Of a stretch of 64,000 nt of DNA, positions 34,449-56,120 are shown one piece after another. A program made the position numbers and the translations under genes. Within the stretch, counting starts at the first letter, position 1; each line of letters begins with the position of its first letter. The notes beneath the pieces are model-generated. The model saw only the letters and a list, made by a program, of their open reading frames with translations, was not told where the DNA came from and made no database searches. The stretch comes from Candidatus Hadarchaeota archaeon (GTDB lineage Archaea > Hadarchaeota > Hadarchaeia > Hadarchaeales > Hadarchaeaceae): NCBI GenBank assembly GCA_964514965.1, contig CAZETV010000001.1, positions 889,239 to 953,238 of the forward strand, given 5' to 3'.

Positions 34449-35612
34449 ATGGTGGTCGGTGTCAACACCAGACCAATCGTCAAATCAGCGAAGGCCCTCG
34501 GCTTGAAAACTATTGCTGTAGATTGTTTTGGCGACATCGATTTGCGTGGATATGCAGATGATGTGTTTTCTGTCAGATCCGCCGAGTTGAAGGTTCAGCC
34601 TAAAAGCTCGAAAAGACCTAGTCTCTTTCATCTCTCGCTCCAAGCTCTTGAAACCCACAACGTCGATGCAATTATTTTAACATCGGGCATGGAGCACTAC
34701 TCAGCGTTTATTGAGGATCTTGGAAAGAGGGCAAAAATAATTGGAAATGACACGACAAGCTTGGAGACGTGCAAAAATAAAGAGAAACTTTTTCGCATAG
34801 CGGATAAACTTGGCATCCCCTACCCGCTCACACGTAGGGTTAGAAAGCTAGATGAAGCGTTAGAGGCCGCACGGGATATCGGGTACCCCGTTGTTTTGAA
34901 GCCGGCTTTTGGAGGCGGCGGCATCGGGATAAGGCTTGCTAGGTCACCGGATGAGTTGGTGCGATTCTTTGGAAGGGTGTTGTCAGCGGGTGATAAAAAG
35001 AATTTGTACGTGCAAAAGTACATTCAAGGCATCGATGCTAGCACATCTATCTTGTCGAACGGTGATGAGGCCAAGTGTCTAACAATTAACGAGCAAATCA
35101 TAGGCGACAAACGGTTGGGCGTGCCCAGGCCATTTGGTTACTGTGGCAACGTGATACCTCTAAACAAAACCGAGTTTGAAAACCAAATCGCCGAGACATC
35201 GAAAGCGATTTGTGAGGAAATCGGATTGGTGGGCTCGAATGGGGTCGATTTCGTCCTTTCTGACAAGCCATACCTGATGGAGATAAATCCCAGATTTCAG
35301 AATACGATTGATTGCGTCGAAGGACTTCTCGGGATAAACCTTGTTTGGGAACATATCCAATCTTGTCTGGGTGAGCTAGGCAGATACAAGCAACCCAGCG
35401 GTTACTCCGCTAAGCTAATCCTGTATGCTAAGAGAGATTCTAGAATTCCGGACCTCAGAGGAACACCAAGTATTGTTGATGTGCCCGCACCCAAAACAAC
35501 GGTTAGAAAAGGAAAACCAATTTGCTGCGTCTTAAAGTTTGGTGGAGACAGACGCAGGCTAATCGTCGATGCGTATAGAGCGGCGGGTAAGCTCTACGAG
35601 AAAATATATTAA
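34449..35612 (+). CDS. ATP-grasp family ligase, unassigned (adjacent to methanofuran biosynthesis genes)
   Basis: ATP-grasp fold features (VVLKPAFGGGGIGIRLA, nucleotide-binding and Mg-binding regions EINPRFQ); start chosen at ATG 34449 (MVVGVNTRP). Confidence 0.6.
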   Translation: MVVGVNTRPIVKSAKALGLKTIAVDCFGDIDLRGYADDVFSVRSAELKVQPKSSKRPSLFHLSLQALETHNVDAIILTSGMEHYSAFIEDLGKRAKIIGNDTTSLETCKNKEKLFRIADKLGIPYPLTRRVRKLDEALEAARDIGYPVVLKPAFGGGGIGIRLARSPDELVRFFGRVLSAGDKKNLYVQKYIQGIDASTSILSNGDEAKCLTINEQIIGDKRLGVPRPFGYCGNVIPLNKTEFENQIAETSKAICEEIGLVGSNGVDFVLSDKPYLMEINPRFQNTIDCVEGLLGINLVWEHIQSCLGELGRYKQPSGYSAKLILYAKRDSRIPDLRGTPSIVDVPAPKTTVRKGKPICCVLKFGGDRRRLIVDAYRAAGKLYEKIY

Positions 35613-36334
35613 CACAGCTTCAACCGATTAATGTCTTCTCTTGTAATCACTCCTTTGTGAAGTGATGTTGCAACAAGGACGCCTGCTGCGCCATGGTCAC
35701 GCAACAAGCGAATATCTTCGATGCTTATCACCCCGCCCCCCACAAGCACTGGCATATTTGTGCATTGCAAAGCTAAGTTCAACGATTCAAAATCCGGCCC
35801 CCCTTGGGTGCCTACCCTATCTAAGGACAGAAGAATTATCTCAGAAGCCCCCTCACCCTCAAATTTTCGAATGAGTTCTTCTAGTCGTAGCCGCATCAAG
35901 TCCGACCTAGCAACCACATGTCCAAATTTAACATCGATACTGGCCGCCACGGGCATTTTATGAGCGTTTATTAATTTGGGAATTTCCTCGAAGGATTCAA
36001 GCGTCTCCGTAGCGAGCACAATTTTTTCCACACCTTTTTCCACGTATTTATCAACTTCATCAGCTCGTCTGAAGCCCGCATCCACCATGATTTTCATCCC
36101 GGTTTCGGCCACGATTTGGCCTATCACACGGTGATTGTGGCCGATTCGACGAATGGCATCCAGATCTGCGATGTAGAGTTCTTCTAGGCCGAGCTTTTGG
36201 AACGCCCTTGCCACTGATAGGGGATCAGAATTCCCCACGAGGACACTTCGAACCGCTTTGTATCTCTCTCGTTCACCTGCAATCGCATGGACGACTTTGC
36301 TGTGCATGATGTCAATGACTGGAATAACCCTCAT
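35609..36334 (-). CDS. HisA/HisF-family TIM-barrel protein, unassigned
   Basis: 241 aa with (beta/alpha)8 HisA/HisF-like phosphate-binding segments (VIPVIDI...YIADLD...VLVGGGVISIEDI); translationally coupled to mfnE. Confidence 0.6.
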   Translation of the reverse strand: MRVIPVIDIMHSKVVHAIAGERERYKAVRSVLVGNSDPLSVARAFQKLGLEELYIADLDAIRRIGHNHRVIGQIVAETGMKIMVDAGFRRADEVDKYVEKGVEKIVLATETLESFEEIPKLINAHKMPVAASIDVKFGHVVARSDLMRLRLEELIRKFEGEGASEIILLSLDRVGTQGGPDFESLNLALQCTNMPVLVGGGVISIEDIRLLRDHGAAGVLVATSLHKGVITREDINRLKLC

Positions 36335-36972
36335 AGCGAGACCTCCGGTAATATCGTTGTGCAGGTAGTTTCCTTTCCACTTAGTATTTTTTTGATTCGA
36401 TCAGGATGCCTTCCGTTCACCACCCAGCAGGTTATACCCGTGTGCTCTAAAGTCTGCGACAGTTTTGGATCCACACAGGATTGGTCAATTTTCCTAAGCT
36501 TCTGGATGGAGATAGATTTCTGAAGTCGCCCCTGTTCGAGAATTCCGTCAATCATTTTAACCAAAAGGAGTTTTTTACAACCAATCTTTTCGGTGACCCA
36601 TGCTGCAATTGAATCTGAGGTTACCTTCCATGTGGGTTCAAGTTCCGGAGAGCAACCCAAAGTTCTATACGGAAGAAATATCGAACACCCCCGCGCTTCC
36701 CTTTTAGGGATATCCGTTAAGGTCGAGCCATCGATTAGATCGTGGAACATCAACCCATAGAGATTCATGCTAAGAATCGCCATTTGGTGGGCAACTTGAT
36801 CGGAGAACTCGTGCTTCATCTGCAGCTTACGCACGAGATTCGCAAAATCACCACCGCCTGGGATAATGAGTAAGCCGTGGCGATTGGATATCTCCTTTAA
36901 AGTTCTGCATAAGTTCCTCAGGGCAGGGGGGTCAGCTTGTAAGCCTCCACCCACCTTAATCACGACATCCAT
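36331..36972 (-). CDS. mfnE: Amino-acid-kinase-family kinase, probable MfnE (methanofuran biosynthesis)
   Basis: 213 aa with kinase N-terminus VVIKVGGGL and IIPGGGDFAN; position inside the mfn cluster. Assignment by family and context. Confidence 0.5.
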   Translation of the reverse strand: MDVVIKVGGGLQADPPALRNLCRTLKEISNRHGLLIIPGGGDFANLVRKLQMKHEFSDQVAHQMAILSMNLYGLMFHDLIDGSTLTDIPKREARGCSIFLPYRTLGCSPELEPTWKVTSDSIAAWVTEKIGCKKLLLVKMIDGILEQGRLQKSISIQKLRKIDQSCVDPKLSQTLEHTGITCWVVNGRHPDRIKKILSGKETTCTTILPEVSL

Positions 36973-38002
36973 GCTTGAGCGCCTCCGCAGCCAGTAGACT
37001 GGCGCCGAATGCGGGCGCCATCAACGCCGCCTCCTCACCATACAGAGTTGCGAAATCGATGACTTCATTGAATCCCAAGGCCCGAACAGCTTTTTCAGCG
37101 AGAATCCTCCTACCGAGGCCTGCCACTACAATCTTCGAACTCTTTGGAAGCTTATGTAATCTAATGACTTTTTCAAGTACTTTGGCCACGAGGTCTATTT
37201 GTTTCTCATGGAAGGCTTTCGCAGCCATGATGATTTGCCTTTTCCCGATCTCATCCACATCACTGCAGAAAACCCTTGCGATACGTTGCATACAGCTCGC
37301 TCTATCCTTTTTCCTGCCGTCGGGAGTTTCGCACATATAATCCTCCTCTTCAATCATCCCAAGCACTCTATAGACATCGGCTGTGATGGCAAAGTTTTCG
37401 GCGGCAATCCTCGTTTTTTTGCCGCTGAGCGACACTTCTGAGCAAATAAATGGCAGCGGGGTGCGGAGAACCCCCATATAAAGAAGTTCGCCAGTCCTCA
37501 ATCTCTGAAGGTCGGTCTGTCCCAGAGGGGAGGGCCTGACTTTCTTTAAGGGAATTATGTCTGTGGTAGTGCTTCCGACGTCCATGAAAATGCAATTAGG
37601 ATATTTCCTTCCCACGATCGAGGTGCTGGCAATCCAATTGGCTGCTGCGAGCTTTCCCGGGAAAGCAAGCGATTGTTCGCGCGTAAACAAGGCACCATCT
37701 AACGACACAAACAAACAGACCTTTTTCCCAAATGCACCACATGTGACTTCAACTATCTCAGCTACTCCTTCATGTTTGGTCCGAAAGATATCGCAGAGTT
37801 CCCCAGTTAAGGTAACTCCAACGACTTGTGGGCGGGTGAATTCGGCGAGATTTCTAAGGAATCGGTCGAGCGCTTCCTTGTTCTTCCATAGCGGAATGTA
37901 CTTGAGCCAGCATCTTTGTACTTTCTCGTCCTCAAGCAGAACGGCTTTTGTGTTTGCCCCGCCTATGTCAAGACCAAGCGATCGCATCCCCACCGACCCC
38001 AA
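36956..38002 (-). CDS. mfnF: Hydantoinase-A-like ASKHA protein, probable MfnF (methanofuran biosynthesis)
   Basis: 348 aa ASKHA-like protein with LGLDIGGANTK and FMDVGSTTTDIIP motifs, matching the H4MPT-linked C1 pathway family to which MfnF belongs. Confidence 0.5.
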   Translation of the reverse strand: MGSVGMRSLGLDIGGANTKAVLLEDEKVQRCWLKYIPLWKNKEALDRFLRNLAEFTRPQVVGVTLTGELCDIFRTKHEGVAEIVEVTCGAFGKKVCLFVSLDGALFTREQSLAFPGKLAAANWIASTSIVGRKYPNCIFMDVGSTTTDIIPLKKVRPSPLGQTDLQRLRTGELLYMGVLRTPLPFICSEVSLSGKKTRIAAENFAITADVYRVLGMIEEEDYMCETPDGRKKDRASCMQRIARVFCSDVDEIGKRQIIMAAKAFHEKQIDLVAKVLEKVIRLHKLPKSSKIVVAGLGRRILAEKAVRALGFNEVIDFATLYGEEAALMAPAFGASLLAAEALKHGCRD

Positions 38003-39116
38003 TCAAAGTAGCAACCTCGTTTAACGTGCTTTCGAGCCTGTGTTCAGCGCTTCTGGCGGTGATTCCAGATTCCACGATGATTGAAAGCGGGCGCCCTTTC
38101 TGGATACTCCCATTGGACGGGATGGGTGGAGAGATAACTCCTGGGATTTCCCGGAGTTTGCCCAGCTTTTTGACATTCATTCTGATGTTCTTTCCAGCTT
38201 TGGGGATTTTCATCAAAGAATATCCCTCAAGCTTTGGGTTGGGCATGGTTGCTCCGTCGATGAGCACCCTCACCAAGATTTCTCCTAGATTTGCTTGGAG
38301 TACTCGAGCTAATGCGACGAAGGATGTAGTTATCCGAGGGTTTAACTCTATGAAAAAAGGCGAAGTTCCGACAACTAGGTCGACCCCACAATAACCGCGC
38401 AAACCTAGACTTTCGGCAGCTTTGAGAGCGATCTCGGCGCATTTTTCTTTTAGCGGATGATCAAGCGGGACTGCTCCGCCAACATACATGAATCGGCCTT
38501 TTTGAATTGCTATCTCCTGTCGGTTTACAGATAGTACAGTTCCTCCCTCTTCCCCCATCATCAAACAACAACTTGCATGTTCACCCTCAAGGAATTCCTG
38601 AAAAATCACACCCGCGGCGCCACGTGATGACGTAGCAAATTTGATTCCTTCGCAGCCAATCCCATCCACAGGTTTGATAAGGACTCTTCCGGTGCCGCGC
38701 GGTTTTTTCCATGTCTTCGGCTGTGGAACAATCCCTTGGAGCATGCGATGCGTGAGCCATTTGTTTGCGCAAATCCGAATGATTTCTGCTTGGGACCCGA
38801 GCACCTTTATACTCCTTTTTCTTAGTTTCGTGCTTATCTCCTCAAGCTCGCGTCCTTTCTCAGGTGCTATAACCAATGCTGCATCGGGCCTGCATTTCAA
38901 AGCTGCATTTAATCCATTTCGATTTGGGAACACATCTGCATCTAACCAATCAGCTAGCCCCCTAAGCCTTTTGTCGAGAACCGTGATGATGTCGAAGCCG
39001 CTACCGCTGAACTCGCTCACCATGGTTCTCAACATGGCGAAGCCTTCGGAGAGAAGTTGAGCGTTAGTCTCTGGATGAAGGCCCCCAGCCACACTTTCAA
39101 GTATTAAGACGCGCAT
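37968..39116 (-). CDS. mfnD: ATP-grasp ligase, probable tyramine--L-glutamate ligase MfnD
   Basis: 382 aa ATP-grasp protein (KPVDGIGCEGI, ELNPRITTSF) between mfnB and mfnF. Confidence 0.5.
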   Translation of the reverse strand: MRVLILESVAGGLHPETNAQLLSEGFAMLRTMVSEFSGSGFDIITVLDKRLRGLADWLDADVFPNRNGLNAALKCRPDAALVIAPEKGRELEEISTKLRKRSIKVLGSQAEIIRICANKWLTHRMLQGIVPQPKTWKKPRGTGRVLIKPVDGIGCEGIKFATSSRGAAGVIFQEFLEGEHASCCLMMGEEGGTVLSVNRQEIAIQKGRFMYVGGAVPLDHPLKEKCAEIALKAAESLGLRGYCGVDLVVGTSPFFIELNPRITTSFVALARVLQANLGEILVRVLIDGATMPNPKLEGYSLMKIPKAGKNIRMNVKKLGKLREIPGVISPPIPSNGSIQKGRPLSIIVESGITARSAEHRLESTLNEVATLIGVGGDAIAWS

Positions 39117-39118
39117 AA

Positions 39119-39850
39119 CTAAGCCCTCAGAATTTTTTTCAGCCGCCGAACGAGTCTCTCGGATACTCTGCCATTTTTTCTGTCCCCACCCTCACAGACC
39201 ACTCCCCTAACCCCGATTACGTCTGGATTCAGCGACTTCAGCGTCTGTACTTCTTTAAGCCCTAACGAACCGGCGAGAGAAGCCCATAGACCGTATGAAT
39301 GTGAATTGTTAACGAAATTCTCCAAATCTTCTCTCCGAAGGAAATCTGTGAGGGGCCGGCCGTCCTTGATTGCCGTATCTATCATTGCAATGTCAGCTTC
39401 ACATTCGCCCGCTATTTCAGGTATGAGCAGGGGATTTATTGTTCCAGACCTCTCAAAGTCCCCATAAGTACATACAGCAACCTTTGCCGATCCATAAGTG
39501 CCTTTAACCGCCCTTACCACCTGCTTTACAAAGTATATGGCACTTTTCACATCTTTTGGACCTTTCAGTCCGACTTTTATTATATTAGCCCCCGCTTTAA
39601 GGGCACCAAACGCCGCTAGGGCAGCACTTCCCGGAAGGTCAGGGAAATCGCCAATGGCCGCGCTGAGAGGTATGTTCGCGGGTACGGATTGCCTCACGTT
39701 AGCTATGACCCATGGGAAGTTTGCACCGAGCGATCCCTCTTCAGGGTTCTTAATGTCGAGAATATCGGCTCCCCCTCTGATAGCGGCCAATGCCTCCTCG
39801 ATGTCTCTAGGGCTGACAAGAAGTAGGGTCAAGTTAGGTCCTCCAGGCAT
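39119..39850 (-). CDS. mfnB: DUF556/MfnB-type (5-formylfuran-3-yl)methyl phosphate synthase
   Basis: 243 aa class I aldolase-like TIM barrel with LLLVSPRDIEEALAAIRGGADILDIKNP N-terminus and catalytic Lys context (IIKVGLKG). Confidence 0.65.
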   Translation of the reverse strand: MPGGPNLTLLLVSPRDIEEALAAIRGGADILDIKNPEEGSLGANFPWVIANVRQSVPANIPLSAAIGDFPDLPGSAALAAFGALKAGANIIKVGLKGPKDVKSAIYFVKQVVRAVKGTYGSAKVAVCTYGDFERSGTINPLLIPEIAGECEADIAMIDTAIKDGRPLTDFLRREDLENFVNNSHSYGLWASLAGSLGLKEVQTLKSLNPDVIGVRGVVCEGGDRKNGRVSERLVRRLKKILRA

Positions 39851-40959
39851 TCGTCGAAATCAGCCAAAAATGAAGTTATGTGTTTTAGACGATGATGGGG
39901 CATGACCACAAGTCTGATGCTCCGCGGCTGACTATTCATAGATACGAGCCACCCTCTTGCTTCCAGTTTATCGCAGACATCGCTTAAATTGACAGTATCC
40001 GATTTGACGGCAACGATGTTGAGTTCGGGCTCCACTATGAGGTCCACGGCGTCCATCTTTCTGATGCCTATCGCCAGCTTTTGCGTTAGGTCCATGCAGC
40101 GCTTAACTATCTTTTGGTAGCCTTTGTACCCTAATGAGTTAAGAAGGGCCCAAACTGCGGCTACGGACGCGCCCGATCTCGTGCCCAAGAGAGTTGAGTT
40201 TGGGCTGTTCAGATAGGGCGGATTCATTTCGATTTTTTTAAGCCAATTTCCATTGCGGAAAAGGATGGACCCCGCTGGTATGGGGGCAAGCCCCATCTTA
40301 TGAGGGTCTAGGGTGATGGATGATACCGAACCTATGCTAAAATCCCAAGGGGGAGGATTTTTAATGAAGGGTAAGACAAAACCTCCAAACGATGCATCTA
40401 CGTGAAGAAAACAGCCAAGATCCTCAGCAATTTCAGCGATCTCCTCGATTGGATCTACCAAACCAAGTGCCACCGTGCCAGCAGTGGCCGTAATGGCTAG
40501 AGTCTCTTTGCTGGCTTTTTCTTGTATGCTGTCGACGCTTGCACGGTAAGTCTCATCGAGTGCTATGTGAGTAAGATTCAGCTGTTGAAGATTACATGCC
40601 TTAGTTACAGAATAATGAGCAGAAACAGGCGCGATTACATTTTTTCGGTTTAGTAGTTTTCTGGCAACCCACAAGGTAACTATGTTCCCTTCAGTTCCTC
40701 CCGAAGTTATGTAGCCAGCTGCCTCAGGTCTTGAAGTCAATGTACCGATTTTTCTTATCGCCTCTTCTTCCAGTGATTTCACGCTTGGGAAAATTCGGGG
40801 GTCCAATAGATTCGTTTCAAGAAACATCAAATATGCATCAACGGCTACCTTCAATGGTTTTGAACACATGGAGCAAAAAACTCTGCCAGAATCATAGCTC
40901 CAATCCTGGCTCCGTCTGTCCTCAAGCGATTTCAACAGCTCTTTGGCGGAGCCAGTCAT
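39829..40959 (-). CDS. mfnA: L-tyrosine decarboxylase MfnA (PLP-dependent, group II decarboxylase)
   Basis: 376 aa with PLP-lysine motif context (SITLDPHKMGLAPIPAG) and SGGTEGN segment typical of archaeal MfnA. Confidence 0.8.
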   Translation of the reverse strand: MTGSAKELLKSLEDRRSQDWSYDSGRVFCSMCSKPLKVAVDAYLMFLETNLLDPRIFPSVKSLEEEAIRKIGTLTSRPEAAGYITSGGTEGNIVTLWVARKLLNRKNVIAPVSAHYSVTKACNLQQLNLTHIALDETYRASVDSIQEKASKETLAITATAGTVALGLVDPIEEIAEIAEDLGCFLHVDASFGGFVLPFIKNPPPWDFSIGSVSSITLDPHKMGLAPIPAGSILFRNGNWLKKIEMNPPYLNSPNSTLLGTRSGASVAAVWALLNSLGYKGYQKIVKRCMDLTQKLAIGIRKMDAVDLIVEPELNIVAVKSDTVNLSDVCDKLEARGWLVSMNSQPRSIRLVVMPHHRLKHITSFLADFDECLEDLT

Positions 40960-41030
40960 AGAATCCCAAGCGTAAATTTTTGGTCTGAATTTATAAATGC
41001 GAGAGTGCCAATAAATTTGGAGGTTTGGTC

Positions 41031-41858
41031 ATGGTTCAAAGGGTGAGAGTAGGATTAGTTAAGATGGGCAACCTCGGCACTTCTGCCATGTTAGATCTGA
41101 TGCTCGATGAGCGGGCGGAAAGGGAGGACATCGACTTTAGGGTTGTGGCATCTGGGCCGAAAATAACCGAGGAGGACTGTAAAGGGGTTTCTGAAAAAAT
41201 TCTTGATTTCAATCCCGAACTAATCATAGCAATAAGCCCAAATCCTTCCGTTCCGGGACCTTCGAAGGCCAGAGAAATCCTCAAGAAATCTGGCAAGCCT
41301 TGCATAATCATCGGCGATGCCCCAGGTACTAAAATCGCCGGAGAACTTGAGAAGACAGGTTTTGGCTACATATTCGTCGAGGCGGATTCCATGCTTGGCG
41401 CAAGAATGGAATTTCTTGACCCTATCGAGATGTCGCTCTTTAATGCGGATGTAATCAAGGTTCTTTCAGTAACCGGCGCTTTCCGAGTTGTTTATGAGGA
41501 GGTTGATAAAGCAATCGAGGGCGTGAAGTCTAGCAAGCCCTATTTGCCGAAGATAATTATCGACCGTGATAAAGCTGTAAACGCCGCCGAATTTGAAAAT
41601 CCCTATGCGCGTGCGAAGGCCATGGCAGCTTTTGAAATAGCGAAAAAAGTTGCAGACGTAAGCGTTGAGGGCTGTTTTAGGGTCAAGGAGAAAGAGAGGT
41701 ACATACCGATTGTGGCGGCGGCGCATGAGATGATGAGGACGGCCGCAAAGTTATGTGACGAAGCTCGCGAAATAGAAAAAAGCGAGGACTCTGTGCTAAG
41801 GAGGCCGCATGGAAGAAAAGGCGAACTCCTCTCGAAACGAAAGCTTATGGGAATCTAG
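41031..41858 (+). CDS. mtd: F420-dependent methylene-tetrahydromethanopterin dehydrogenase
   Basis: N-terminus MVQRVRVGLVKMGNLGTSAMLDLMLDERAERED matches the Mtd family; GGAGGT Shine-Dalgarno 8 nt upstream of ATG 41031 (ORF track began at an upstream TTG). Confidence 0.85.
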   Translation: MVQRVRVGLVKMGNLGTSAMLDLMLDERAEREDIDFRVVASGPKITEEDCKGVSEKILDFNPELIIAISPNPSVPGPSKAREILKKSGKPCIIIGDAPGTKIAGELEKTGFGYIFVEADSMLGARMEFLDPIEMSLFNADVIKVLSVTGAFRVVYEEVDKAIEGVKSSKPYLPKIIIDRDKAVNAAEFENPYARAKAMAAFEIAKKVADVSVEGCFRVKEKERYIPIVAAAHEMMRTAAKLCDEAREIEKSEDSVLRRPHGRKGELLSKRKLMGI

Positions 41859-41860
41859 AA

Positions 41861-42967
41861 TTGGCACTCCTCGGTACTAAGTGCGGGGATTCTTGTACGC
41901 TCATTAATAGAGGGGCACTAAAATTGTTTGGAATAGGGATGAAAGGAAAACCGCTGGAAGGTGACATGGTAGAAACGGCGGATAACATTATTTTCGATGT
42001 TAGAGGACATACCCATCCGCCCGGAAGGGTCATTGCTTATCCCAAGTACGTGTCAGATTTGAGAGGGAACTTGAGGCGTGGCGAAACCACTTTTCGGAGG
42101 GTCCGCACCTTTCAAGATTTGCATGATGCAATTGAGCAGTTGGATTCAAAGTATTTGATTTACGATCCTGTTTTCGGCGAAAAATTATGCGAAGTTTCGG
42201 AGGAAGGTATAAACTATCACTATAGACCCAGCGACTGTCTGTCAGAGCTGCGACGTAAAAAGGAGCTGGACAAAGTCGAAAATGAGGCACTTTCCCTGCT
42301 TCAGCTCATGAAAACGGAAGCCAAAGTTCCGTGGAACAAGCTAGGACTTTCTGGGTCAATACTTACGAAGCTCTACACAATCTCGTCTGACATTGATCCC
42401 GTTGTTTATGGATTGAAGAACTGCTGCCGAGTATACGCGAGCATAATGCAGTTGTTGGAGGATGGGGAAATAGAATTAGAGAAGGTGAAGGAGGAAGAGA
42501 AGAAGGAAGATTATAAAAAAGAAATTCGTTCCGGAGAGTTGGATAAATCTGTAGTCTCTTATGAAGATTACATGCGCGTGGAAATGAGAAAAACCTTTGT
42601 GGGGCGGTTTGGCGGTCGGAAGTACTCCATAAAATTCGTCAAGGATTGGGGTGAGGTAGAGAGTACCTATGGGGTGGTTAAGTGTACTCCAAGAGGAAGT
42701 GTTAGAATAAAGGCCAAAATCGAGGACGATTCGGATGCAATCTTCATGCCAGGCGCCTATAAGATTTGTAACGTCAAGCTCTTGGAGGGGCCAGATTTTG
42801 TGCCAGTGGAGATTTTATCAGTTCACTTAAGGTTCTGTGAACAGGCAAAAAGGGGCGAAACTGTTATCGCGCGGGGAAAGCTTGAATCTGTACAGCGGAG
42901 AAGTGGGGACGAATATTATAGGCTCGTCCTTGGGAACGAGGCTTCAGACTACATGATTTTAGTTTGA
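41861..42967 (+). CDS. Uncharacterized protein with central Pol-beta-superfamily nucleotidyltransferase motif
   Basis: 368-aa ORF starting 3 nt after the mtd stop; contains GS-x9-DxD signature (LGLSGSILTKLYTISSDIDPVVYG) about 150 aa from the N-terminus, flanked by unrecognised N- and C-terminal domains. Confidence 0.4.
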   Translation: MALLGTKCGDSCTLINRGALKLFGIGMKGKPLEGDMVETADNIIFDVRGHTHPPGRVIAYPKYVSDLRGNLRRGETTFRRVRTFQDLHDAIEQLDSKYLIYDPVFGEKLCEVSEEGINYHYRPSDCLSELRRKKELDKVENEALSLLQLMKTEAKVPWNKLGLSGSILTKLYTISSDIDPVVYGLKNCCRVYASIMQLLEDGEIELEKVKEEEKKEDYKKEIRSGELDKSVVSYEDYMRVEMRKTFVGRFGGRKYSIKFVKDWGEVESTYGVVKCTPRGSVRIKAKIEDDSDAIFMPGAYKICNVKLLEGPDFVPVEILSVHLRFCEQAKRGETVIARGKLESVQRRSGDEYYRLVLGNEASDYMILV

Positions 42968-43004: not shown

Positions 43005-43877
43005 TCAATGAGTTAAAACGTGATCGATTATCTTTTTGGTTATACTTACTTTTGTCGTGGATTGGAGACCTTTCCACCCAGGAATGGCGTTGACCTCAGT
43101 AATGAAGAACTCGTCATCCCGTTCAACGATGTCCACCCCGGCGTACTCACATCTCAAGATTTCTGCCGACTTTATCGATGCTTCTTCTAGCTCTCCACGT
43201 AATTCACATGGCTCGACTCTCGCTCCCTTTGAAAAGTTAGTCTTCCAGCTTTCGCCGACTCTCTTCATTGCCGCTATAACTTCATCCCCGATAATGAAAG
43301 CCCTTATATCCTCGTTGCGATGAGGAATGAACTCTTGGACGTAATACACATACCTTCCAAATTCAAGGGCCGTAAAAACTCTATATGCTAGGTCCCGATC
43401 ACTCACTCGTACCATCCCCGCACCCAAAGAGCCGAAGAGGGGCTTGACTATCACGTCCTTGAACTCCTCGAAGGCCTTCATGGCATCGTCATGCTTTTCG
43501 GTAACGATAGTCTTGGGGGTCGGGATTCCCGCATCTTCCAACAAAGAGCACGTATAGAACTTATCCGCACATCGCTCTATGGCGATTGCAGGGTTCAGTA
43601 CCTTTACTCCCAAATTCTCCAGCCTGTGAAGCGTATCCATTCTGAATATCAGCTGTTCCGCTGATCCTTTCGGCACCCATCTGACAATTAATGAGTCGAA
43701 CTCATCAAGATCGTGACCACAACATGAGACGCGTGGCTTTCCGCTCAACTTTGCGACTAGGTAAGAAAGAGGAAAGGTAAAACAGCTGATTTTTCTGCTT
43801 TCTATTTCTTCCCTCAACTGCTCAACATTCCAGTCATTTTTACCTGAGGTAAAAATTCCGATTTTCTTCACACGCAT
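43005..43877 (-). CDS. mptN: RimK-like ATP-grasp glutamate ligase, probably tetrahydromethanopterin:alpha-L-glutamate ligase (MptN) or CofF-like
   Basis: 290 aa RimK-type ATP-grasp (VIVKPLFGSLGAGM, EVNAIPGWKG); last gene of the fwd-ftr-mch operon. Confidence 0.55.
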   Translation of the reverse strand: MRVKKIGIFTSGKNDWNVEQLREEIESRKISCFTFPLSYLVAKLSGKPRVSCCGHDLDEFDSLIVRWVPKGSAEQLIFRMDTLHRLENLGVKVLNPAIAIERCADKFYTCSLLEDAGIPTPKTIVTEKHDDAMKAFEEFKDVIVKPLFGSLGAGMVRVSDRDLAYRVFTALEFGRYVYYVQEFIPHRNEDIRAFIIGDEVIAAMKRVGESWKTNFSKGARVEPCELRGELEEASIKSAEILRCEYAGVDIVERDDEFFITEVNAIPGWKGLQSTTKVSITKKIIDHVLTH

Positions 43878-44809
43878 GCACCCAGTGATTTCGCCAGCAC
43901 TTCCTCGTCAATGCTTCCGGCATGAAAAACTCTTCCGGTCCTCAGGTTGTTTATCGTTACTTCGGCGGGGGAGAAAAGTTTTGGATCGATCTTGAAGAAG
44001 TCCCTATCATATTTTTCGAAGAGTTCAAGGAATGGCAGGCCGTAGTCCTTGGAGGCGCGTGAGGGAATTTCATCGATCACCTTCTCAACCTCAGAGTCGT
44101 CAGCATCCACGAAGTACATCGTCCTCCCACCGTAGAGCACACAGTCGTTGGTTTTCCCCATCGCTTCTAGATCGTTTTTGGTCACTGGCGCTACGGGAGC
44201 ACTTCCGCTCCCGCAGATTATCTCGCCTATATCGAACCCGACCTCATGTAGCTTGTGCACGCCGGTTTCCACAATTCTCGCTGATATCTGGATGCTCCCA
44301 ACAATGCTTGCAGTCGGGGCAGCCAAGATGTAGAGACTATCGGGCTTCACCTTGCATTTTTGGGCGATGAAATCCGCTACCTTTTCGTTTGGTATTTTTC
44401 TAGTCTCGAGCGTGATGACCGCTTTCTCACACCTATCTTCATATTTCAATTCTCGGAACAGCTTTTCCTCCACCCTCGCCAGCGCCCTCGCGGGACCCGA
44501 ACCCATCGCGAAGTAATCTTCAACTTTTATCGCCCACCCAGCAAATTGAGAAGCCATGCATGATATCGCGGGATGGTCCACGTTCACATGGACATAGGGC
44601 CTTTTCTCCATGCAAAGACTAACGCCGCCAAGACCCCCTAGACACGCCTCTGAAAAAAGTTTGCCAGCTTTAAGGCTCCCCTGCACCTTGATTCCAGAGT
44701 CGATCACTACTGCCCCATTTTTTAGTTTGAGGACTTTGACCCCCAGTTCTTCCTCACTTTGAGTCATCGCGTCTGCTATTTTTGAAGCTCTTTCGTTCAC
44801 GCTTATCAT
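43868..44809 (-). CDS. mch: Methenyl-tetrahydromethanopterin cyclohydrolase
   Basis: 313 aa with the Mch family N-terminus (ISVNERASKIADAM) and conserved core. Confidence 0.85.
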   Translation of the reverse strand: MISVNERASKIADAMTQSEEELGVKVLKLKNGAVVIDSGIKVQGSLKAGKLFSEACLGGLGGVSLCMEKRPYVHVNVDHPAISCMASQFAGWAIKVEDYFAMGSGPARALARVEEKLFRELKYEDRCEKAVITLETRKIPNEKVADFIAQKCKVKPDSLYILAAPTASIVGSIQISARIVETGVHKLHEVGFDIGEIICGSGSAPVAPVTKNDLEAMGKTNDCVLYGGRTMYFVDADDSEVEKVIDEIPSRASKDYGLPFLELFEKYDRDFFKIDPKLFSPAEVTINNLRTGRVFHAGSIDEEVLAKSLGACV

Positions 44810-45627
44810 GTCGCGCCTCCTTTCCAGATCAGTATCTCCCCCTTCCCTAGGGCGGCAATATCTCCGTTATACCTATCGTAGAAACCCTCGATGTGTTCTT
44901 TTTTGACAGGTAAATCATATTTTTCCAGTCTTTTTAGGAAGGCTCTGATGAAAGTCGGTTTGTAGGTGCAACTATATCTGAAGGTCGGCAGTAGCTTCGG
45001 GGGATTGAAGGCTATGATGGTTCCCCTATCCATCCCGGCTCCCGCTTTCTCCCCGATATCGCCGGAACAGACTATTGACCCACCTGTCATGAGTGCGCCG
45101 GTTAAGTTTCCTAGTTTGCCTTTGATGACGATTGCGCCCCTTCTCATCAGTTCTCCGACCTCGCGTCCGGCATCGCCTTCAATTATAATCATTCCGCCCT
45201 TCATTCCGACTTTAGAACCCCGGTAACCCGAACCAACGAGGTTTCGGGCGTTCCCTCTGACCCTTATCAGCCCCCCTTTCATCTCGGCCCCGAGCCAATC
45301 CCCAGCGTTTCCGTGAACGAGTATCTCTCCTCCTTGCATCTCCCGACCAAGGTGCATTCCAGCACTCCCCTCGATTACCAACTTGCCTTTGCTCATCCTT
45401 GCCCCAATATGCTTGACCGCGCTGACATCGCCAGTGATAACTATCTTCTCAGTTCCATCCGATTCCTGTTCGATATTGAAGATATCAGTCAATCTTTTCC
45501 TTCGGTTTCCCCACAAAAGCTCGAGACTTTTTAGCTCCGCCACAGACTTACCAGAAAATACATCGGGTGAGATGCATTCGGCCTCAACCGGCACCTTAAA
45601 TTTGACTTTAGGTTTGAGGATGATCAT
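44806..45627 (-). CDS. fwdC: Formylmethanofuran dehydrogenase subunit C
   Basis: 273 aa beta-helix protein with repeated G-x-x-G-x-x-M/L-x-x-G repeats (GNAGDWLGAEMKGG, GDAGREVGELMRRG). Confidence 0.8.
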   Translation of the reverse strand: MIILKPKVKFKVPVEAECISPDVFSGKSVAELKSLELLWGNRRKRLTDIFNIEQESDGTEKIVITGDVSAVKHIGARMSKGKLVIEGSAGMHLGREMQGGEILVHGNAGDWLGAEMKGGLIRVRGNARNLVGSGYRGSKVGMKGGMIIIEGDAGREVGELMRRGAIVIKGKLGNLTGALMTGGSIVCSGDIGEKAGAGMDRGTIIAFNPPKLLPTFRYSCTYKPTFIRAFLKRLEKYDLPVKKEHIEGFYDRYNGDIAALGKGEILIWKGGAT

Positions 45628-46520
45628 CGGTTGCCCTCGAAGAGTTTGTGGAGGTAGACCAAGTGTTTGCCCAGCTTGCCCCCATAGTTTCCGGCAGTTA
45701 TGAGCTTTATCCCGTCCACACTACAGGCTTCTTCGATTCCCGCCTTCGTGGCTTTTTTCACGCTTTCTCCGTCCAATCCGTTTATCACTATTTCTAGGAC
45801 GGAGTTGACATCCTGCGGTATCTTGCTTTCCACTACAGATCTCAGGGTCGGACAATATGCGGTATTCGTCGAAGCCCTTAGGAACTTGTACTTCGACCCG
45901 ACCTTGCTACCGCTCCTTACTACACCGCCGGGAAATGGAGTTATCACATTTTTGATTCCTTTTATAGCTTCGACTGCTTTCTCCGCGGCCTCAAGCACGC
46001 AGTCGGCATCTCTCCCCAAGATGAGGAAGTTACCTCCTCCCACGGCTTTTCGGACTTTGAACTTTTCCTCAACTAAAAATTCACCCTCCATGGCGGGGAT
46101 TCTCCAAAACCTCCTGCCGTCGATCCGCTTGGCAATTTGATAGCCGTCCCCGAAAAATCTCAACTTCCCACCAATGTTTATTTCCTTCTCCCCTTCCAAG
46201 TTGTTGAAACAGGCCGTTGTGGGACAAGTCATTATGCATTGACCAACCCTCCGCATGAGCTGGTCCTCGAGGGTCTTTTCGGACATGGCTAAAACTAGAA
46301 TGTTCGCCCCCGGTCTTCCATCTGGGGTTTCTTTGACTCTCACAAGATTCTCTATCCCAGCTTCAGCCCCGCACGCTATGACTGAAGTGGCAAATCCCGT
46401 GGTGGTGTTCGTAGCGTGCAAAGCCCATTTTTTGTTTTTCGCCGTTATCAACAAGCGTGCCGCTACCATATCGAAGGCTTCGGCAAATGTATCTTCTATT
46501 TCCACTCCGTTTATCTGCAT
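45624..46520 (-). CDS. ftr: Formylmethanofuran--tetrahydromethanopterin N-formyltransferase
   Basis: 298 aa with the Ftr N-terminus (MQINGVEIEDTFAEAFDMVAARLLITA) and length typical of Ftr. Confidence 0.9.
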   Translation of the reverse strand: MQINGVEIEDTFAEAFDMVAARLLITAKNKKWALHATNTTTGFATSVIACGAEAGIENLVRVKETPDGRPGANILVLAMSEKTLEDQLMRRVGQCIMTCPTTACFNNLEGEKEINIGGKLRFFGDGYQIAKRIDGRRFWRIPAMEGEFLVEEKFKVRKAVGGGNFLILGRDADCVLEAAEKAVEAIKGIKNVITPFPGGVVRSGSKVGSKYKFLRASTNTAYCPTLRSVVESKIPQDVNSVLEIVINGLDGESVKKATKAGIEEACSVDGIKLITAGNYGGKLGKHLVYLHKLFEGNR

Positions 46521-48118
46521 GGTATCATCTCTCCTCTGGGCAGGTACTCGTCCTGCACGGGGTAGTTTTCTAAGGCGACCGTATAGTACTTAGCGAAATC
46601 TTCCCTCATCTCATCGGTCACCTCGCCTCCAGCGTTTACCCAGTAAGTTCTCCCTTGGGGTGATTCAACTATTTTCCCATCCTTCAACACAATTTTCCCA
46701 TCCTTGATCACGTATTTAGCCCTCGAGAAAGAGCGTTTTATATCGTTCTCTTTGAACTCGTAAATTGCTACATCGGCATCGGCTCCCACACCTAGATGTC
46801 CTTTTTGCGTGAGTCCCAAGAGCTTGGCAGCGGCTGCCCTCGTTATTATGGCAATTTCGAACAGCGAATATTCCCTGTCTATCCCTCCGAGACCAGTTCT
46901 AGACGAAGCGGCGCGATGAACGGACTGAAGCATCTGATCGCGCGCCTGCTTGTTCATCAACCAAGAGATGACTTCTGGGTAGTGGTAGAATGGGCCCCCG
47001 TTGGGGTGATCGGTGGTCATGAAGAACTTCCACGGATCTTTAACTAGCAGAGCCATCTCCAACCCGATTGCCCACTGAACGGCATTGACGGGGCTCTTAG
47101 CTTTGTAAACATGCGGGACTATGCCAGCGCCCTCTTCCATCTCCACATCTGCATTGTACCACTTGTTCCCGGTCATCTTGTAAAGGCTGTGTTGCATTGG
47201 ACCGTCGGCCGTCATTGTGGTAGCGTCGTCGAATATGACTTGCCCCATATCACAAGTCACGTTTTCGCGCTGGTTTATCCGCTTCGCGAGCTCGGCTGCC
47301 CCCGAGGCTAATTTCGCCCAACTGTCCCCCGCGTAAGAGTTAAACTGGATGTGAGTGATGTGAATCCTTCCTTTGACTGCATTTATCGATTCTGCGGTCG
47401 TCTCGAAATTCCCGGGTGTCCCAAGGTTGTTGCAGTGAACGTGAATGGGGTGGGGGAGTTTCAACTCTTCGTTGACCTTCGCTAGACCAGTGAGTATCTC
47501 TCGGGGGGTTACTTCGTAATTATCGACCCTGTCATTGATGCTTTTTACGTTCCTGCCCCACTTCCAGTTTTCCACTCCACCTGGATTCACTATTTTTACG
47601 ACGCACCCCCTTGTCGCCTTTAAGAGCCATGCAACGAAGTTCTTGAGCTTTTCAAAGTCCTTCTCCTTGACGTACCTCAAGACGAAGTGGTTATTGCCCA
47701 TGAGTGTGTAACACCCCTTGTCCACGATTGGGATGTCGTTTAGCTCCTCGTGTGTGTGCCTCGCCCCTAGTGGAGGTACAGCAGCTTCCATCAGGGTCGT
47801 GTAACCAAGCTTCACGTACCTATACCCTGTCACAAACGTTGTGGGGACAGTGTATCCGACCCCGCCTCTCGTGATTTCTGTTTTCGAAACGGGGTCCTTT
47901 CTGTGGTCTTCAGGTCTGAACAACCTGCCGAGGTTAACCTTAGAACCAGCGATGTGGGTGTGGATCTCCACGCCTCCAGGTAGGACGATCAGCCCAGAGG
48001 CATCTATTTCCTTTCCATCAGCTTCCTCGACTATTTTCCCGTTTTTGATGAACAGATCTTTCTTTTCTCCGTTTATCCCGTTCAAGGGGTCGTAGATGGT
48101 GCCATTCTTGATAATCAA
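46511..48118 (-). CDS. fwdA: Formylmethanofuran dehydrogenase subunit A (amidohydrolase)
   Basis: 535 aa amidohydrolase fold with metal-binding HxH (GGVEIHTHIAG) and downstream His/Asp ligands. Confidence 0.85.
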   Translation of the reverse strand: MIIKNGTIYDPLNGINGEKKDLFIKNGKIVEEADGKEIDASGLIVLPGGVEIHTHIAGSKVNLGRLFRPEDHRKDPVSKTEITRGGVGYTVPTTFVTGYRYVKLGYTTLMEAAVPPLGARHTHEELNDIPIVDKGCYTLMGNNHFVLRYVKEKDFEKLKNFVAWLLKATRGCVVKIVNPGGVENWKWGRNVKSINDRVDNYEVTPREILTGLAKVNEELKLPHPIHVHCNNLGTPGNFETTAESINAVKGRIHITHIQFNSYAGDSWAKLASGAAELAKRINQRENVTCDMGQVIFDDATTMTADGPMQHSLYKMTGNKWYNADVEMEEGAGIVPHVYKAKSPVNAVQWAIGLEMALLVKDPWKFFMTTDHPNGGPFYHYPEVISWLMNKQARDQMLQSVHRAASSRTGLGGIDREYSLFEIAIITRAAAAKLLGLTQKGHLGVGADADVAIYEFKENDIKRSFSRAKYVIKDGKIVLKDGKIVESPQGRTYWVNAGGEVTDEMREDFAKYYTVALENYPVQDEYLPRGEMIPCR

Positions 48119-49386
48119 GCTTTCACCTTCTCAATAATTCTTTTCAAAATTTCTCTATCGGGTAAGAACTCCGAATCGATTACTTTTTTGAGCCTTAGGG
48201 GGATTCCGTCCATTCTGTAGGCAGTTCCATCGCACTCTATCCCAGCTATCGCTGAGGGAATTACAATCCTGGCAATTAAGGAAGTAAGGCTGATTTTTGG
48301 ATCGATAACGATTGTTGGGATCGTAGTCAAATGCTTGGAAGCTTGGGCGGGGAAATGCGCAACGGGGTCGGAGGCTATTATGAGAGCGGCATCACATTCT
48401 CCACGAGCCAAGATATCCACAGCAGAAAATTCACCTGGATTGTAAACCGGATAACCTTTGGAGAAATTGACCGCATAAGGGTAGCCAGTGCACCAAGTCA
48501 TCACATCGTTGGCACCAGACACGTTATAGTGGCCCCTCATCGGGATTATGGCGAATTTGGTGTGGTCATTCAAATCCCTGACGAGGCGGAGAGCCGCGTC
48601 GACGTTCATGTGCTTTCCCCCAGTCATCGTAAGACCTAGGCCGAAGAATATCACCCCAAATTTGCAACTCTTCATTTTCTCCGCAAGTTGTTTGATGGTT
48701 TCAGAAGGTACCCCTGCAACATCCCCCACATCATATCCCTTGACCACAGCTCTGAATGCCGAAAGCAACTCGTAGTCTTGGCCGGGCTTAACTTTTACAA
48801 AAAGATTGGCCATCTTCGAGGTCTTCGTTTCTCTCACATCAATGTGCACTATCTCCCGACCTTTCTTTCCACTTTCTGTGTAGAGGCCTCTAGGGGTTAT
48901 CGAGTATCGCGTTGCGTGCTTGATATGGGCCTCCGCTGGGTTACACCCCCAGAAAATCACCAAATCGGCCCTGTTTTTGACTTCCCCTAGTGTACATTTT
49001 GCAGCTCCACAATCTTGGGCTGCTTGAATGGTTGGTCCGTGGCAGACGGAGCTCGTGTTATCAATGGATGCTCCAGTCAATTCGGCGAGCTCGACAGCCA
49101 GTCTCTGGGCGTCGGTTTCGGTAGAGCTCAGGCCGTATATCAATGGAAAATCGGCTTTCTTCAAAATCTCCGCTGTTTTCTCCAAAGTTCTTTCTATTGA
49201 CACTTCAACGAGTTTCCTTTTTTTCTTTATTTGAGGTTTAGCTCTGTCTTTAGCGTGGTTCAGAAATTTACTTTTGGAGAATGCGCAAGCATTTTTAACA
49301 TCGACTACCCTTCCATCTTCCGTTACAACTTCTATATCATCACAAAGACATCCACAAAGAGGACACACGATATTTTTGTAATTCAT
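48115..49386 (-). CDS. fwdB: Formylmethanofuran dehydrogenase subunit B (molybdo/tungstopterin catalytic subunit, Cys-type)
   Basis: N-terminal 4Fe-4S motif CPLCGCLCDD; catalytic Cys-His dipeptide in SSVCHGP (Cys, no in-frame TGA), so not a selenoprotein. Confidence 0.85.
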   Translation of the reverse strand: MNYKNIVCPLCGCLCDDIEVVTEDGRVVDVKNACAFSKSKFLNHAKDRAKPQIKKKRKLVEVSIERTLEKTAEILKKADFPLIYGLSSTETDAQRLAVELAELTGASIDNTSSVCHGPTIQAAQDCGAAKCTLGEVKNRADLVIFWGCNPAEAHIKHATRYSITPRGLYTESGKKGREIVHIDVRETKTSKMANLFVKVKPGQDYELLSAFRAVVKGYDVGDVAGVPSETIKQLAEKMKSCKFGVIFFGLGLTMTGGKHMNVDAALRLVRDLNDHTKFAIIPMRGHYNVSGANDVMTWCTGYPYAVNFSKGYPVYNPGEFSAVDILARGECDAALIIASDPVAHFPAQASKHLTTIPTIVIDPKISLTSLIARIVIPSAIAGIECDGTAYRMDGIPLRLKKVIDSEFLPDREILKRIIEKVKA

Positions 49387-49772
49387 TTAATCCCTTTTAT
49401 TTGTGTTATGGCATTTACTATTTTCAATATATCTTTGTCCGTCGCTAAAATCTCCGCTTCAACGCCTTTAGAATCTGGCATCCCGGTTCCTTGAGTATCC
49501 GCGCTTATCACCATATTTGCCCAAGGCCCGTAGGGCATGAAAGCGATTCCGTGGTCTATTCTCGACTCTTTACACCTAACGACGGTTGAACCGAATTTGG
49601 TGCTAACTTCTACATTTTCACCCTCTTTAGCACCGATTTCTTTCATATCGTTTTCATTCATCATGACCATGGCGACATTTTTAGAATATTCCTCAGAAGT
49701 TTTGCTAATTTCTAGACTTGTCCCCTGTTCTACCGTCCTTCCACTGATTAAAATCACTTTCATGTGATTCAT
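49383..49772 (-). CDS. fwdD: Formylmethanofuran dehydrogenase subunit D
   Basis: 129 aa molybdopterin-dinucleotide-binding-domain-like small subunit, first gene of the operon. Confidence 0.75.
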   Translation of the reverse strand: MNHMKVILISGRTVEQGTSLEISKTSEEYSKNVAMVMMNENDMKEIGAKEGENVEVSTKFGSTVVRCKESRIDHGIAFMPYGPWANMVISADTQGTGMPDSKGVEAEILATDKDILKIVNAITQIKGIK

Positions 49773-53063: not shown

Positions 53064-53110
53064 CGATTCATCCTTCCGTGAGGTCTATTCCATTTTCCAT
53101 TGTGTGCGAT

Positions 53111-56087: not shown

Positions 56088-56120
56088 ATGTTTTTCTCAC
56101 ACATAAAACTCTCAAAGATT

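Follow-up and report, generated by a model that had tools for sequence, protein, structure and literature searches.

A likely new family of Pol-beta-type nucleotidyltransferases and its candidate role in tetrahydromethanopterin biosynthesis

The gene examined here lies on the forward strand of a 64,000-nucleotide (nt) stretch of a Candidatus Hadarchaeota archaeon genome (assembly GCA_964514965.1, contig CAZETV010000001.1, positions 889,239 to 953,238; hereafter the window, numbered from its first letter). It had been singled out in the original prediction as an open reading frame (ORF) with a nucleotidyltransferase (NTase) motif, placed just behind mtd. We propose, with a probability of roughly 0.55, that it represents subfamily A of a new family in which an NTase core is set between an SH3-like domain and an OB fold, and that it encodes an enzyme for a tetrahydromethanopterin (H4MPT) biosynthesis step without an assigned gene, the leading mechanism being CitX-like. 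Within this proposal, the role in H4MPT biosynthesis is a strong inference. The specific step and donor, which are argued by analogy, would have to be regarded as tentative. H4MPT is the central one-carbon (C1) carrier of methanogenesis, of anaerobic alkane and methane oxidation, and of the archaeal Wood-Ljungdahl pathway. To our knowledge, no genes have been assigned to ribitol formation, alpha-ribosyl phosphate addition, or the ATP-dependent addition of hydroxyglutarate. The gene is a good candidate for one of the enzymes that the pathway still lacks in Asgard, Bathyarchaeial, and Hadarchaeal lineages.

The coding sequence (CDS) is most likely shorter than the predicted ORF of 368 amino acids (aa), beginning at its residue M27. 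The protein features are given below, with residue numbers of the 368-aa ORF unless the 342-aa protein is named.

41939 to 42967, + strand: most likely CDS of the subfamily A SH3-like/NTase/OB-fold protein (342 aa plus stop; identical to the NCBI model, P0001)
41939 to 42256, + strand: N-terminal domain (aa 1-106 of the 342-aa protein), combining a beta-rich SH3-like barrel with a small alpha/beta unit
42257 to 42676, + strand: Pol-beta NTase core with a helical insertion
42353 to 42358, + strand: motif residues G165-S166
42389 to 42391, + strand: motif residue D177
42395 to 42397, + strand: motif residue D179
42677 to 42964, + strand: C-terminal OB-fold domain (aa 247-342 of the 342-aa protein), with conserved F.P..Y, EI.S.R.RFCEQA, and GK.E

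Membership in the Pol-beta superfamily, as originally predicted, was borne out by motif, core fold, and family-level profile matches. The GS/DID segment LGLSGSILTKLYTISSDIDPVVYG is present, although its spacing is GS-x10-DID and not x9. As G165-S166-x10-D177-I-D179, it conforms to the superfamily motif rule of hG[GS] followed after 9 to 13 residues by Dh[DE]h. Residues G162, S164, G165, S166, S176, D177, and D179 show no variation in either the 26- or the 120-sequence alignment, and the G..GS...SDxD pattern is invariant across all four paralogous subfamilies (described below), a 36-sequence alignment included. Judged from these alignments, GS...DID is a genuine family-invariant Pol-beta NTase signature rather than a chance match, and the NTase core would be catalytically intact. 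Against PF01909 (NTP_transf_2), the window protein scored 15.3 bits, below the cutoff of 21, whereas its paralogs scored above the cutoff (22.5-25.2 bits). Among diverse family members, 34/36 matched PF01909 (best E value, 1.1e-7) and 23/36 matched PF18765. Residues D262 and E265 (FVKDWGE segment) are nearly invariant, as is an acidic residue at this site across the subfamilies; one or the other is a likely candidate for the third catalytic carboxylate.

The AlphaFold2 model of the 342-aa protein (predicted local distance difference test score, 94.1; predicted template modeling score, 0.91) displays the alpha/beta NTase core fold of the Pol-beta superfamily. The motif was correctly placed at the center of the protein, between N- and C-terminal domains, but the region ahead of the core spans ∼110 to 125 aa and not 150. 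Conserved motifs of the N-terminal domain are EGD..ET..IFDV.G..HPP and DPVF.E.LCEV. Two cysteines, C110 (42188-42190, in LCEV) and C326 (42836-42838, in RFCEQ), are invariant in the 26-sequence alignment of subfamily A, whereas B, C, and D lack them; they may constitute a catalytic, metal-binding, or redox feature specific to A.

Searches with the window protein retrieved no family in NCBIfam, only the subthreshold NTP_transf_2 match in Pfam, and only a spurious FapR hot-dog match (E value, 0.04-0.5) when the PDB was searched by sequence and by profile. No solved structure among the structural matches examined followed the SH3-like/NTase/OB arrangement over its full length. Full-text literature searches found no paper on the family and none proposing a role for CitG/NTase in methanopterin synthesis, and the accessible part of Kuchta et al. 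(2009) mentions neither CitX nor MdcG. Pfam, NCBIfam, and the solved structures and papers found thus do not cover the three-domain architecture, the family of four paralogs, or the cofactor context. This is a new family and architecture, with a likely new role, within the Pol-beta NTase superfamily. Its core differs from those of other members (PF01909/PF18765; GLD-2, Cid1, and CutA; Pol X; cGAS-like CD-NTases) in being placed between an SH3-like N-terminal domain and a C-terminal OB fold, without a poly(A) polymerase (PAP)-associated, neck/body, or HEPN partner domain. The genomic surroundings are those of cofactor biosynthesis, not of RNA, DNA, or defense.

The prediction that the protein is neither a CCA-adding enzyme nor TiaS held up, as neither appeared among the Pfam, NCBIfam, PDB-sequence, or listed structural matches. 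The head-neck-body-tail domains of the former and the kinase-like and Zn-ribbon domains of the latter were likewise not encountered among the matches listed. The class I CCA-adding enzyme shares the Pol-beta NTase, and TiaS has an OB fold beside a nucleotide-using catalytic domain; the family differs from both in domain order and in a context that is not tRNA related. More generally, no confident match to a housekeeping family emerged; such a match had been named in advance as a refutation. A defense NTase (CBASS CD-NTase or MNT/HEPN) was rejected, given the cofactor context and PADLOC matches that were only weak (E values from 0.0077 to 0.0005) and limited to minimal-NTase models of ∼100 aa.

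The structural matches bear on a different possibility, namely, that the protein modifies RNA or acts as a terminal nucleotidyltransferase on RNA or tRNA, with its OB and SH3-like domains binding RNA and its C1 context incidental. The best matches of the NTase core are the noncanonical poly(A)/poly(U) polymerases GLD-2, Cid1, TUT1, and CutA. For the C-terminal domain, the likeness is to the OB folds of SSB and of aminoacyl-tRNA synthetases (anticodon binding), and the N-terminal domain has weak KOW/Sm-like matches. We nonetheless consider an RNA-directed role highly improbable.

The link to H4MPT biosynthesis comes from gene order in several phyla. Sorting with hidden Markov models (HMMs) divides the family into four paralogous subfamilies, A to D, all of which keep the catalytic motif; A, the type found in the window, is the most widespread. 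ORFs were clustered over 83 loci, mostly from Bathyarchaeia. Because most of these loci come from one class, counts are inflated by shared ancestry, and the evidence from other lineages weighs more. In two Promethearchaeota loci (L085 and L086), a divergent DUF447 gene is followed by the same-strand series DUF1464-Flavoprotein-MptH-MptA-A. A Baldrarchaeia-type locus (L094) has DUF447-MptG-DUF1464-DmrX-MptH-MptA-A-D on one strand, and in a Helarchaeota locus (L093) the A-D pair adjoins MptA and MptH, with DUF1464, DHNA (MptD), and DUF447 close by. Of two loci without taxonomic assignment, one (L087) holds CitG and then A-D, with Ftr further along, and the other (L088) holds CitG, an F420-ligase gene, a RimK gene, A-D, Ftr, Mtd, and FwdDBAC-Mch. 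Clustering with known mpt genes was found in at least five gene orders, distributed over Hadarchaeota, three Asgard groups, Bathyarchaeia, L087, L088, and one bacterial lineage.

Fusion to a pathway enzyme provides a further link. Protein P0150 (505 aa) joins HPPK (PF01288, 3e-40) in frame to subfamily A (349 bits against the A HMM), and the HPPK::A fusion is present in three independent assemblies:

L089, 5626 to 7143: HPPK::A fusion
L090, 1559 to 3076: HPPK::A fusion
L091, 1592 to 3109: HPPK::A fusion

The fusion gene is followed by an AfpA-like flavoprotein gene and an MptH-like gene and has bacterial-looking neighbors (MacB/FtsX and GntR). These loci suggest an H4MPT-type pathway in an uncultured bacterium. 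Methylotroph H4MPT islands contain orf19-orf20-afpA-orf21-orf22 (PMC3615186), and DmrX and AfpA are flavoprotein dihydromethanopterin reductases (PMC6193120). Because linkage to H4MPT genes recurs in different arrangements across phyla and is accompanied by the HPPK fusion, H4MPT biosynthesis is the best-supported reading of the family. It is homologous to none of the known H4MPT and methanofuran enzymes (MptA, MptB, MptD, MptE, MptG, MptH, MptN, and DmrX; MfnA to MfnF). It resembles the H4MPT enzymes in occurring in operons or superclusters with MptA, MptG, MptH, DmrX, MptN-like proteins, and the pathway-associated orphans DUF447, DUF1464, and CitG-like.

The same gene orders are relevant to the choice of step. 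A could act elsewhere in the pathway, either on the pterin arm between MptA and MptH (as a RelA/SpoT-like pyrophosphokinase or by nucleotidylation of a pterin or neopterin) or by ATP-dependent adenylylation of the side-chain ribose 5-phosphate, with hydroxyglutarate then attached by a second enzyme (paralog D, B, or C). The position of A directly after MptH and MptA in Asgard operons favors the pterin arm, as does its fusion to HPPK, the maker of pterin diphosphate. Tandem A-D pairs would suit two-step activation and transfer, and CitG is missing from the Asgard operons. However, an HPPK-like role is redundant in a protein already fused to HPPK, the MptD-type aldolase (DHNA) is a separate gene in L093, and the tightest neighbor in Bathyarchaeia is CitG rather than a pterin-arm gene. 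Taken together, action at one of these other steps is rather unlikely.

In Bathyarchaeia, a CitG-family gene (PF01874) was found in the flank of 56/70 loci with at least 2.5 kb of upstream sequence. FwdD, FwdB, FwdA, FwdC, and Mch were present in about 30/52 loci with at least 8 kb upstream, and two Bathyarchaeial loci also hold DUF447, DmrX, MptH, DUF1464, and MptG. A stands beside a CitG/MdcB-type synthase gene in these 56 loci, in L087, and in L088, and in the window a CitG-like gene lies in the same supercluster. The CitG-like protein of the window scored 63 to 70 bits against the NCBIfam CitG/MdcB equivalogs (cutoffs, 272-282), mainly over its C-terminal third, and appears to form a distinct archaeal CitG subfamily. 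No citrate-lyase, malonate-decarboxylase, CitX, or acyl-carrier gene was seen among the annotated window genes or the Pfam calls of related loci. Given scores so far below the cutoffs and no lyase or decarboxylase partner in view, a CitG-like/NTase pair would be chemically economical.

CitG is a known enzyme type that makes alpha-ribosyl 5-triphosphate from ATP. Its product is triphosphoribosyl-dephospho-CoA, which CitX joins to a serine hydroxyl with release of pyrophosphate (PPi). At the end of the H4MPT side chain, an alpha-ribofuranosyl 5-phosphate is reportedly esterified to (S)-2-hydroxyglutarate. By analogy with the CitG/CitX and MdcB/MdcG pairs, the co-clustered CitG-like enzyme would form the donor, a 5''-triphospho-alpha-ribosyl intermediate, from ATP. 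A substrate hydroxyl would attack the alpha-phosphate, with two metals held by D177, D179, and a third acidic residue and with PPi (or AMP) as the leaving group. The phosphodiester so built would have alpha-ribosyl 5-phosphate on one side and (S)-2-hydroxyglutarate, or an alcohol specific to the lineage, on the other. In the full scheme, the CitG-like enzyme would place 5-triphospho-alpha-ribose from ATP onto aminophenyl-ribitol, and the SH3-NTase-OB enzyme, with or without its paralogs, would couple the product to 2-hydroxyglutarate or lineage-specific head groups with loss of PPi, making this a second, so far unrecognized use of triphosphoribosyl chemistry. We advance the full scheme as speculative, and its correctness as doubtful. 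The pairing of A with D, or with B and C, outside Hadarchaeota suggests hetero-oligomers or different acceptors.

The family and CitX have several points in common. Escherichia coli CitX carries a similar SG...DIDV pattern, it is paired genomically with CitG as the family is with a CitG-family gene, and the proposed reaction would share with CitX and MdcG the hydroxyl attack on the alpha-phosphate of a 5''-triphosphoribosyl compound with PPi released. In contrast, the family protein is twice the size of CitX, with the SH3-like and OB domains as additions, and its predicted acceptor is a small molecule (2-hydroxyglutarate) where that of CitX is a protein serine. The family loci also differ from those of CitX and MdcG in showing no acyl carrier protein, citrate-lyase, or malonate-decarboxylase genes, and the CitG-like partner differs from CitG and MdcB proper in falling far short of the equivalog cutoffs. 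The CitX and MdcG families were not among the listed Pfam matches of the family, MdcG itself not having been compared.

A stricter analogy to CitX would have the enzyme transfer a phosphoribosyl-linked group onto a protein serine (e.g., a C1 carrier tethered to Fwd/Ftr) or regulate a C1 enzyme by nucleotidylation. Pairing with a CitG-like gene beside fwdDBAC in Bathyarchaeia is compatible with this, the OB fold could dock a protein, and in every case known to us the products of CitG-family enzymes go to carrier proteins. However, the neighborhoods showed no acyl-carrier-like or CitD/MdcC-like gene, the Asgard context is biosynthetic (MptA, MptH, MptG, and DmrX) rather than one of C1 enzymes, the HPPK fusion points to small-molecule biosynthesis, and we know of no covalently bound H4MPT or methanofuran. 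We consider this reading very improbable.

Several observations weigh against an H4MPT-biosynthesis enzyme with a CitX-like mechanism. Comparison of the family profile with E. coli CitX gave an hhalign probability of 0.3% (E value, 0.2), which amounts to no similarity; thus, the CitX analogy rests on chemistry and gene pairing. No CitG was found within ±8 kb of A in four Asgard loci, CitG in the window is 13 kb from the gene, and the adjacency in Bathyarchaeia, being largely that of one class, is partly inherited synteny. A pterin-arm step would fit the HPPK fusion and the place of A immediately behind MptA/MptH equally well. The third carboxylate is a candidate placed by conservation and not located in three dimensions. 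A PAP-like NTase, an OB fold, and an SH3/KOW-like barrel are also a module set typical of RNA-acting enzymes. Finally, the best matches listed included no member from a cultured methanogen (all were from Bathyarchaeia, Hadarchaeota, and Asgard archaea). Because classical methanogens make the same linkage, either another enzyme does so there or the family makes a lineage-specific variant.

Even so, a large, conserved, and mpt-operon-linked family offers a concrete, clonable candidate for an old gap in the pathway. If the CitG-like/NTase reading is true, it would fill two methanopterin steps that have been without genes since the 1996 outline of the pathway, and the A, B, C, and D paralogs could explain side-chain diversity. 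Should classical methanogens prove to lack the family, nonorthologous enzymes or a different cofactor side chain would be expected in the lineages that carry it. Metabolic reconstructions of uncultured archaea, in which H4MPT synthesis is now scored on incomplete marker sets, would improve, and the Pol-beta NTase superfamily would gain a role in building small-molecule cofactors.

Among 1.84 billion cluster representatives searched with the family profile, 1,345 clusters (at 50% identity) matched at an E value of ≤1e-3 and 417 at ≤1e-30, nearly all of them full length. When one genome from each GTDB species was scanned, relatives turned up in 568 stretches, the best matches being Hadarchaeota at 84% and 76% identity, followed by Bathyarchaeia. 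Named members come from Hadarchaeota, Bathyarchaeia, Methylarchaceae, other Thermoproteota metagenome-assembled genomes (MAGs), one MAG labeled Aenigmarchaeota, a Thermoleophilia bacterium MAG, and, among Asgard archaea, Promethearchaeota, Helarchaeota, Baldrarchaeia, and Wukongarchaeota. Every one of them is a MAG or a single-cell genome, and JGI labels the proteins "predicted nucleotidyltransferase" or "hypothetical protein." Subfamily D is also widespread (452 matches), while B and C were found in Bathyarchaeial loci only. The usual Bathyarchaeial layout is A followed by convergent B and C, with at least three copies in 53 of the 69 loci that have enough downstream flank. Tandem A-D pairs occur in the Helarchaeota-type and Baldrarchaeia-type Asgard loci, in L087 and L088, and in L095, a short unassigned metagenome contig whose cluster includes Tara Oceans members. 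In Hadarchaeota, A stands alone: HMM and BLAST searches found no second copy or paralog in the 64-kb window, and none accompanied A in up to 10 kb of flank in relatives.

A ∼300-aa multipass membrane protein without a Pfam match is encoded ∼20 nt upstream of A, on the same strand, in 50/70 Bathyarchaeia loci. Its HMM matches ECF S-component genes located 4.4 kb from A in Promethearchaeota. Examples are as follows.

L024, 9099 to 9977, + strand: membrane protein
L015, 9055 to 9984, + strand: membrane protein
L085, 13521 to 14162: ECF S-component gene
L086, 13479 to 14096: ECF S-component gene

The membrane protein may represent a link to precursor uptake, and A could accordingly belong to a salvage route for a cofactor precursor imported through this ECF-S-component-like protein. 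Its frequency just upstream of A and its Promethearchaeota counterparts speak for such a route. However, no such gene is present in the window or beside A in the Helarchaeota-type, Baldrarchaeia-type, L087, and L088 loci, and the usual partners elsewhere are the de novo genes MptA, MptG, and MptH. We judge salvage to be highly improbable.

The assignment of the CDS differs from the original prediction. The ORF at 41861 to 42967 (+ strand, 368 aa) exists as described, with a TTG codon 3 nt past the mtd stop codon (TAG, 41856-41858), but that TTG is probably not the true start. The NCBI protein P0001 has 342 aa and begins at M27 (ATG 41939), with 100% identity over 93% of the query, and homologs outside Hadarchaeota are ∼335 to 350 aa long, with alignments starting at M27 or within a few residues of it. 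Three close relatives are 88 to 90% identical in DNA at this locus. In one of them (L005), a 1-nt deletion (L005 ∼1509, aligned to window ∼41879) falls within the 78-nt extension and shifts the upstream frame; the TTG-initiated N terminus is therefore not conserved. Because of this deletion, gene callers give a 385-aa ORF whose beginning lies inside mtd, an example of how start sites are overextended in the Hadarchaeota lineage. Based on the NCBI model, the homolog starts, and the L005 frame break, we place the CDS at 41939 to 42967, the real start most likely being ATG 41939, 80 nt downstream of mtd. With the start at that distance, the predicted translational coupling to mtd is unsupported. 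A further doubt raised at the outset, that the N-terminal 150 aa might not be translated, applies only to the first 26 aa, which appear untranslated. The intervening DNA is as follows.

41861 to 41938, + strand: 78-nt in-frame extension from TTG, probably an untranslated mtd-to-gene spacer (L005 frame break; extension lacking from homologs outside Hadarchaeota)

By inspection, the spacer contains a TATA-like TTAATA (41907-41912), ∼27 to 32 nt ahead of the ATG, a position that would suit a leaderless transcript. The spacer was also checked for a riboswitch or structured RNA, an idea that was rejected (no Rfam match; fold z-score, −0.05).

The neighborhood of the gene in the window is as follows.

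35609 to 40959, - strand: methanofuran-type block of HisA/F-related, MfnE-like AA kinase, Hydantoinase_A-like, ATP-grasp_3, MfnB (4-HFC-P synthase), and MfnA-like decarboxylase genes (Pfam, NCBIfam)
41025 to 41858, + strand: mtd, F420-dependent methylene-H4MPT dehydrogenase, the upstream neighbor (PF01993, 2.8e-126; NF002162, 411.8 bits, cutoff 297)
43005 to 43877, - strand: MptN-like RimK-family glutamate ligase, the convergent downstream neighbor (NF040720 MptN_Meth, 2.2e-87, 292.8 bits, below the cutoff of 350; TIGR00768, above cutoff)
43868 to 49772, - strand: mch-fwdC-ftr-fwdA-fwdB-fwdD C1 block (ORF translations; clustering with Pfam-annotated genes of L004, namely, MCH, FTR, Amidohydro_3, and Molybdopterin)
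50969 to 57104, mixed strands: H4MPT biosynthesis block (TIGR00144, TIGR00284, and TIGR02700 [DmrX] above cutoff), comprising the next six genes
50969 to 51922, + strand: MptG-like RFAP synthase
51900 to 53063, - strand: DUF1464
53111 to 54676, - strand: MptH-like dihydropteroate-synthase-like protein
54677 to 55414, - strand: DmrX
55401 to 56087, - strand: DUF447
56121 to 57104, - strand: CitG-like (PF01874, 4e-79)

The MfnA-like assignment (39829-40959) comes from reading the translation alone. The gene order is FdhD, MobA-like, ATP-grasp, HisA/F-related, MfnE-like, Hydantoinase_A-like, ATP-grasp_3, MfnB, and MfnA-like; then Mtd, the gene studied here, MptN-like, Mch, FwdC, Ftr, FwdA, FwdB, FwdD, and MetE-like; and last MptG-like RFAP synthase, DUF1464, MptH-like, DmrX, DUF447, and CitG-like. 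Genes for the Fwd cofactor (FdhD and MobA-like), methanofuran, C1 enzymes, and H4MPT are assembled in one supercluster of ∼25 kb (32952-57578), an unusually complete co-localization.

The placement beside mtd had been called unexpected, a description that does not suit a gene lying within ∼25 kb of methanofuran/H4MPT biosynthesis and C1 enzyme genes. Nor is there support for the mtd link itself as the meaningful association: among 82 related loci, Mtd adjoins the gene in three Hadarchaeota loci only, and it is also near the separately fetched L088. A conserved mtd link was thus rejected, being confined to Hadarchaeota and the vicinity of L088. From that placement it had been guessed that the protein performs a cofactor-modifying or regulatory nucleotidyl transfer. 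The former is supported in spirit by the Asgard H4MPT operons, the bacterial HPPK fusion, and the Bathyarchaeial CitG-like, fwd, and mch neighbors; nothing was found in support of the latter.

Three small observations concern further neighbors. A PurM-like AIRS/AIRS_C protein adjoins DUF447 in two Asgard loci (L093, 4664-6037; L094, 469-1830), and a weakly CooT-like small protein adjoins the A-D pair in the same two (L093, 10159-10485; L094, 10369-10689). In the window, a 156-aa ORF without a Pfam or NCBIfam match (57108-57578, - strand) lies directly downstream of the CitG-like gene, shares its strand, and could be one more orphan of the H4MPT operon.

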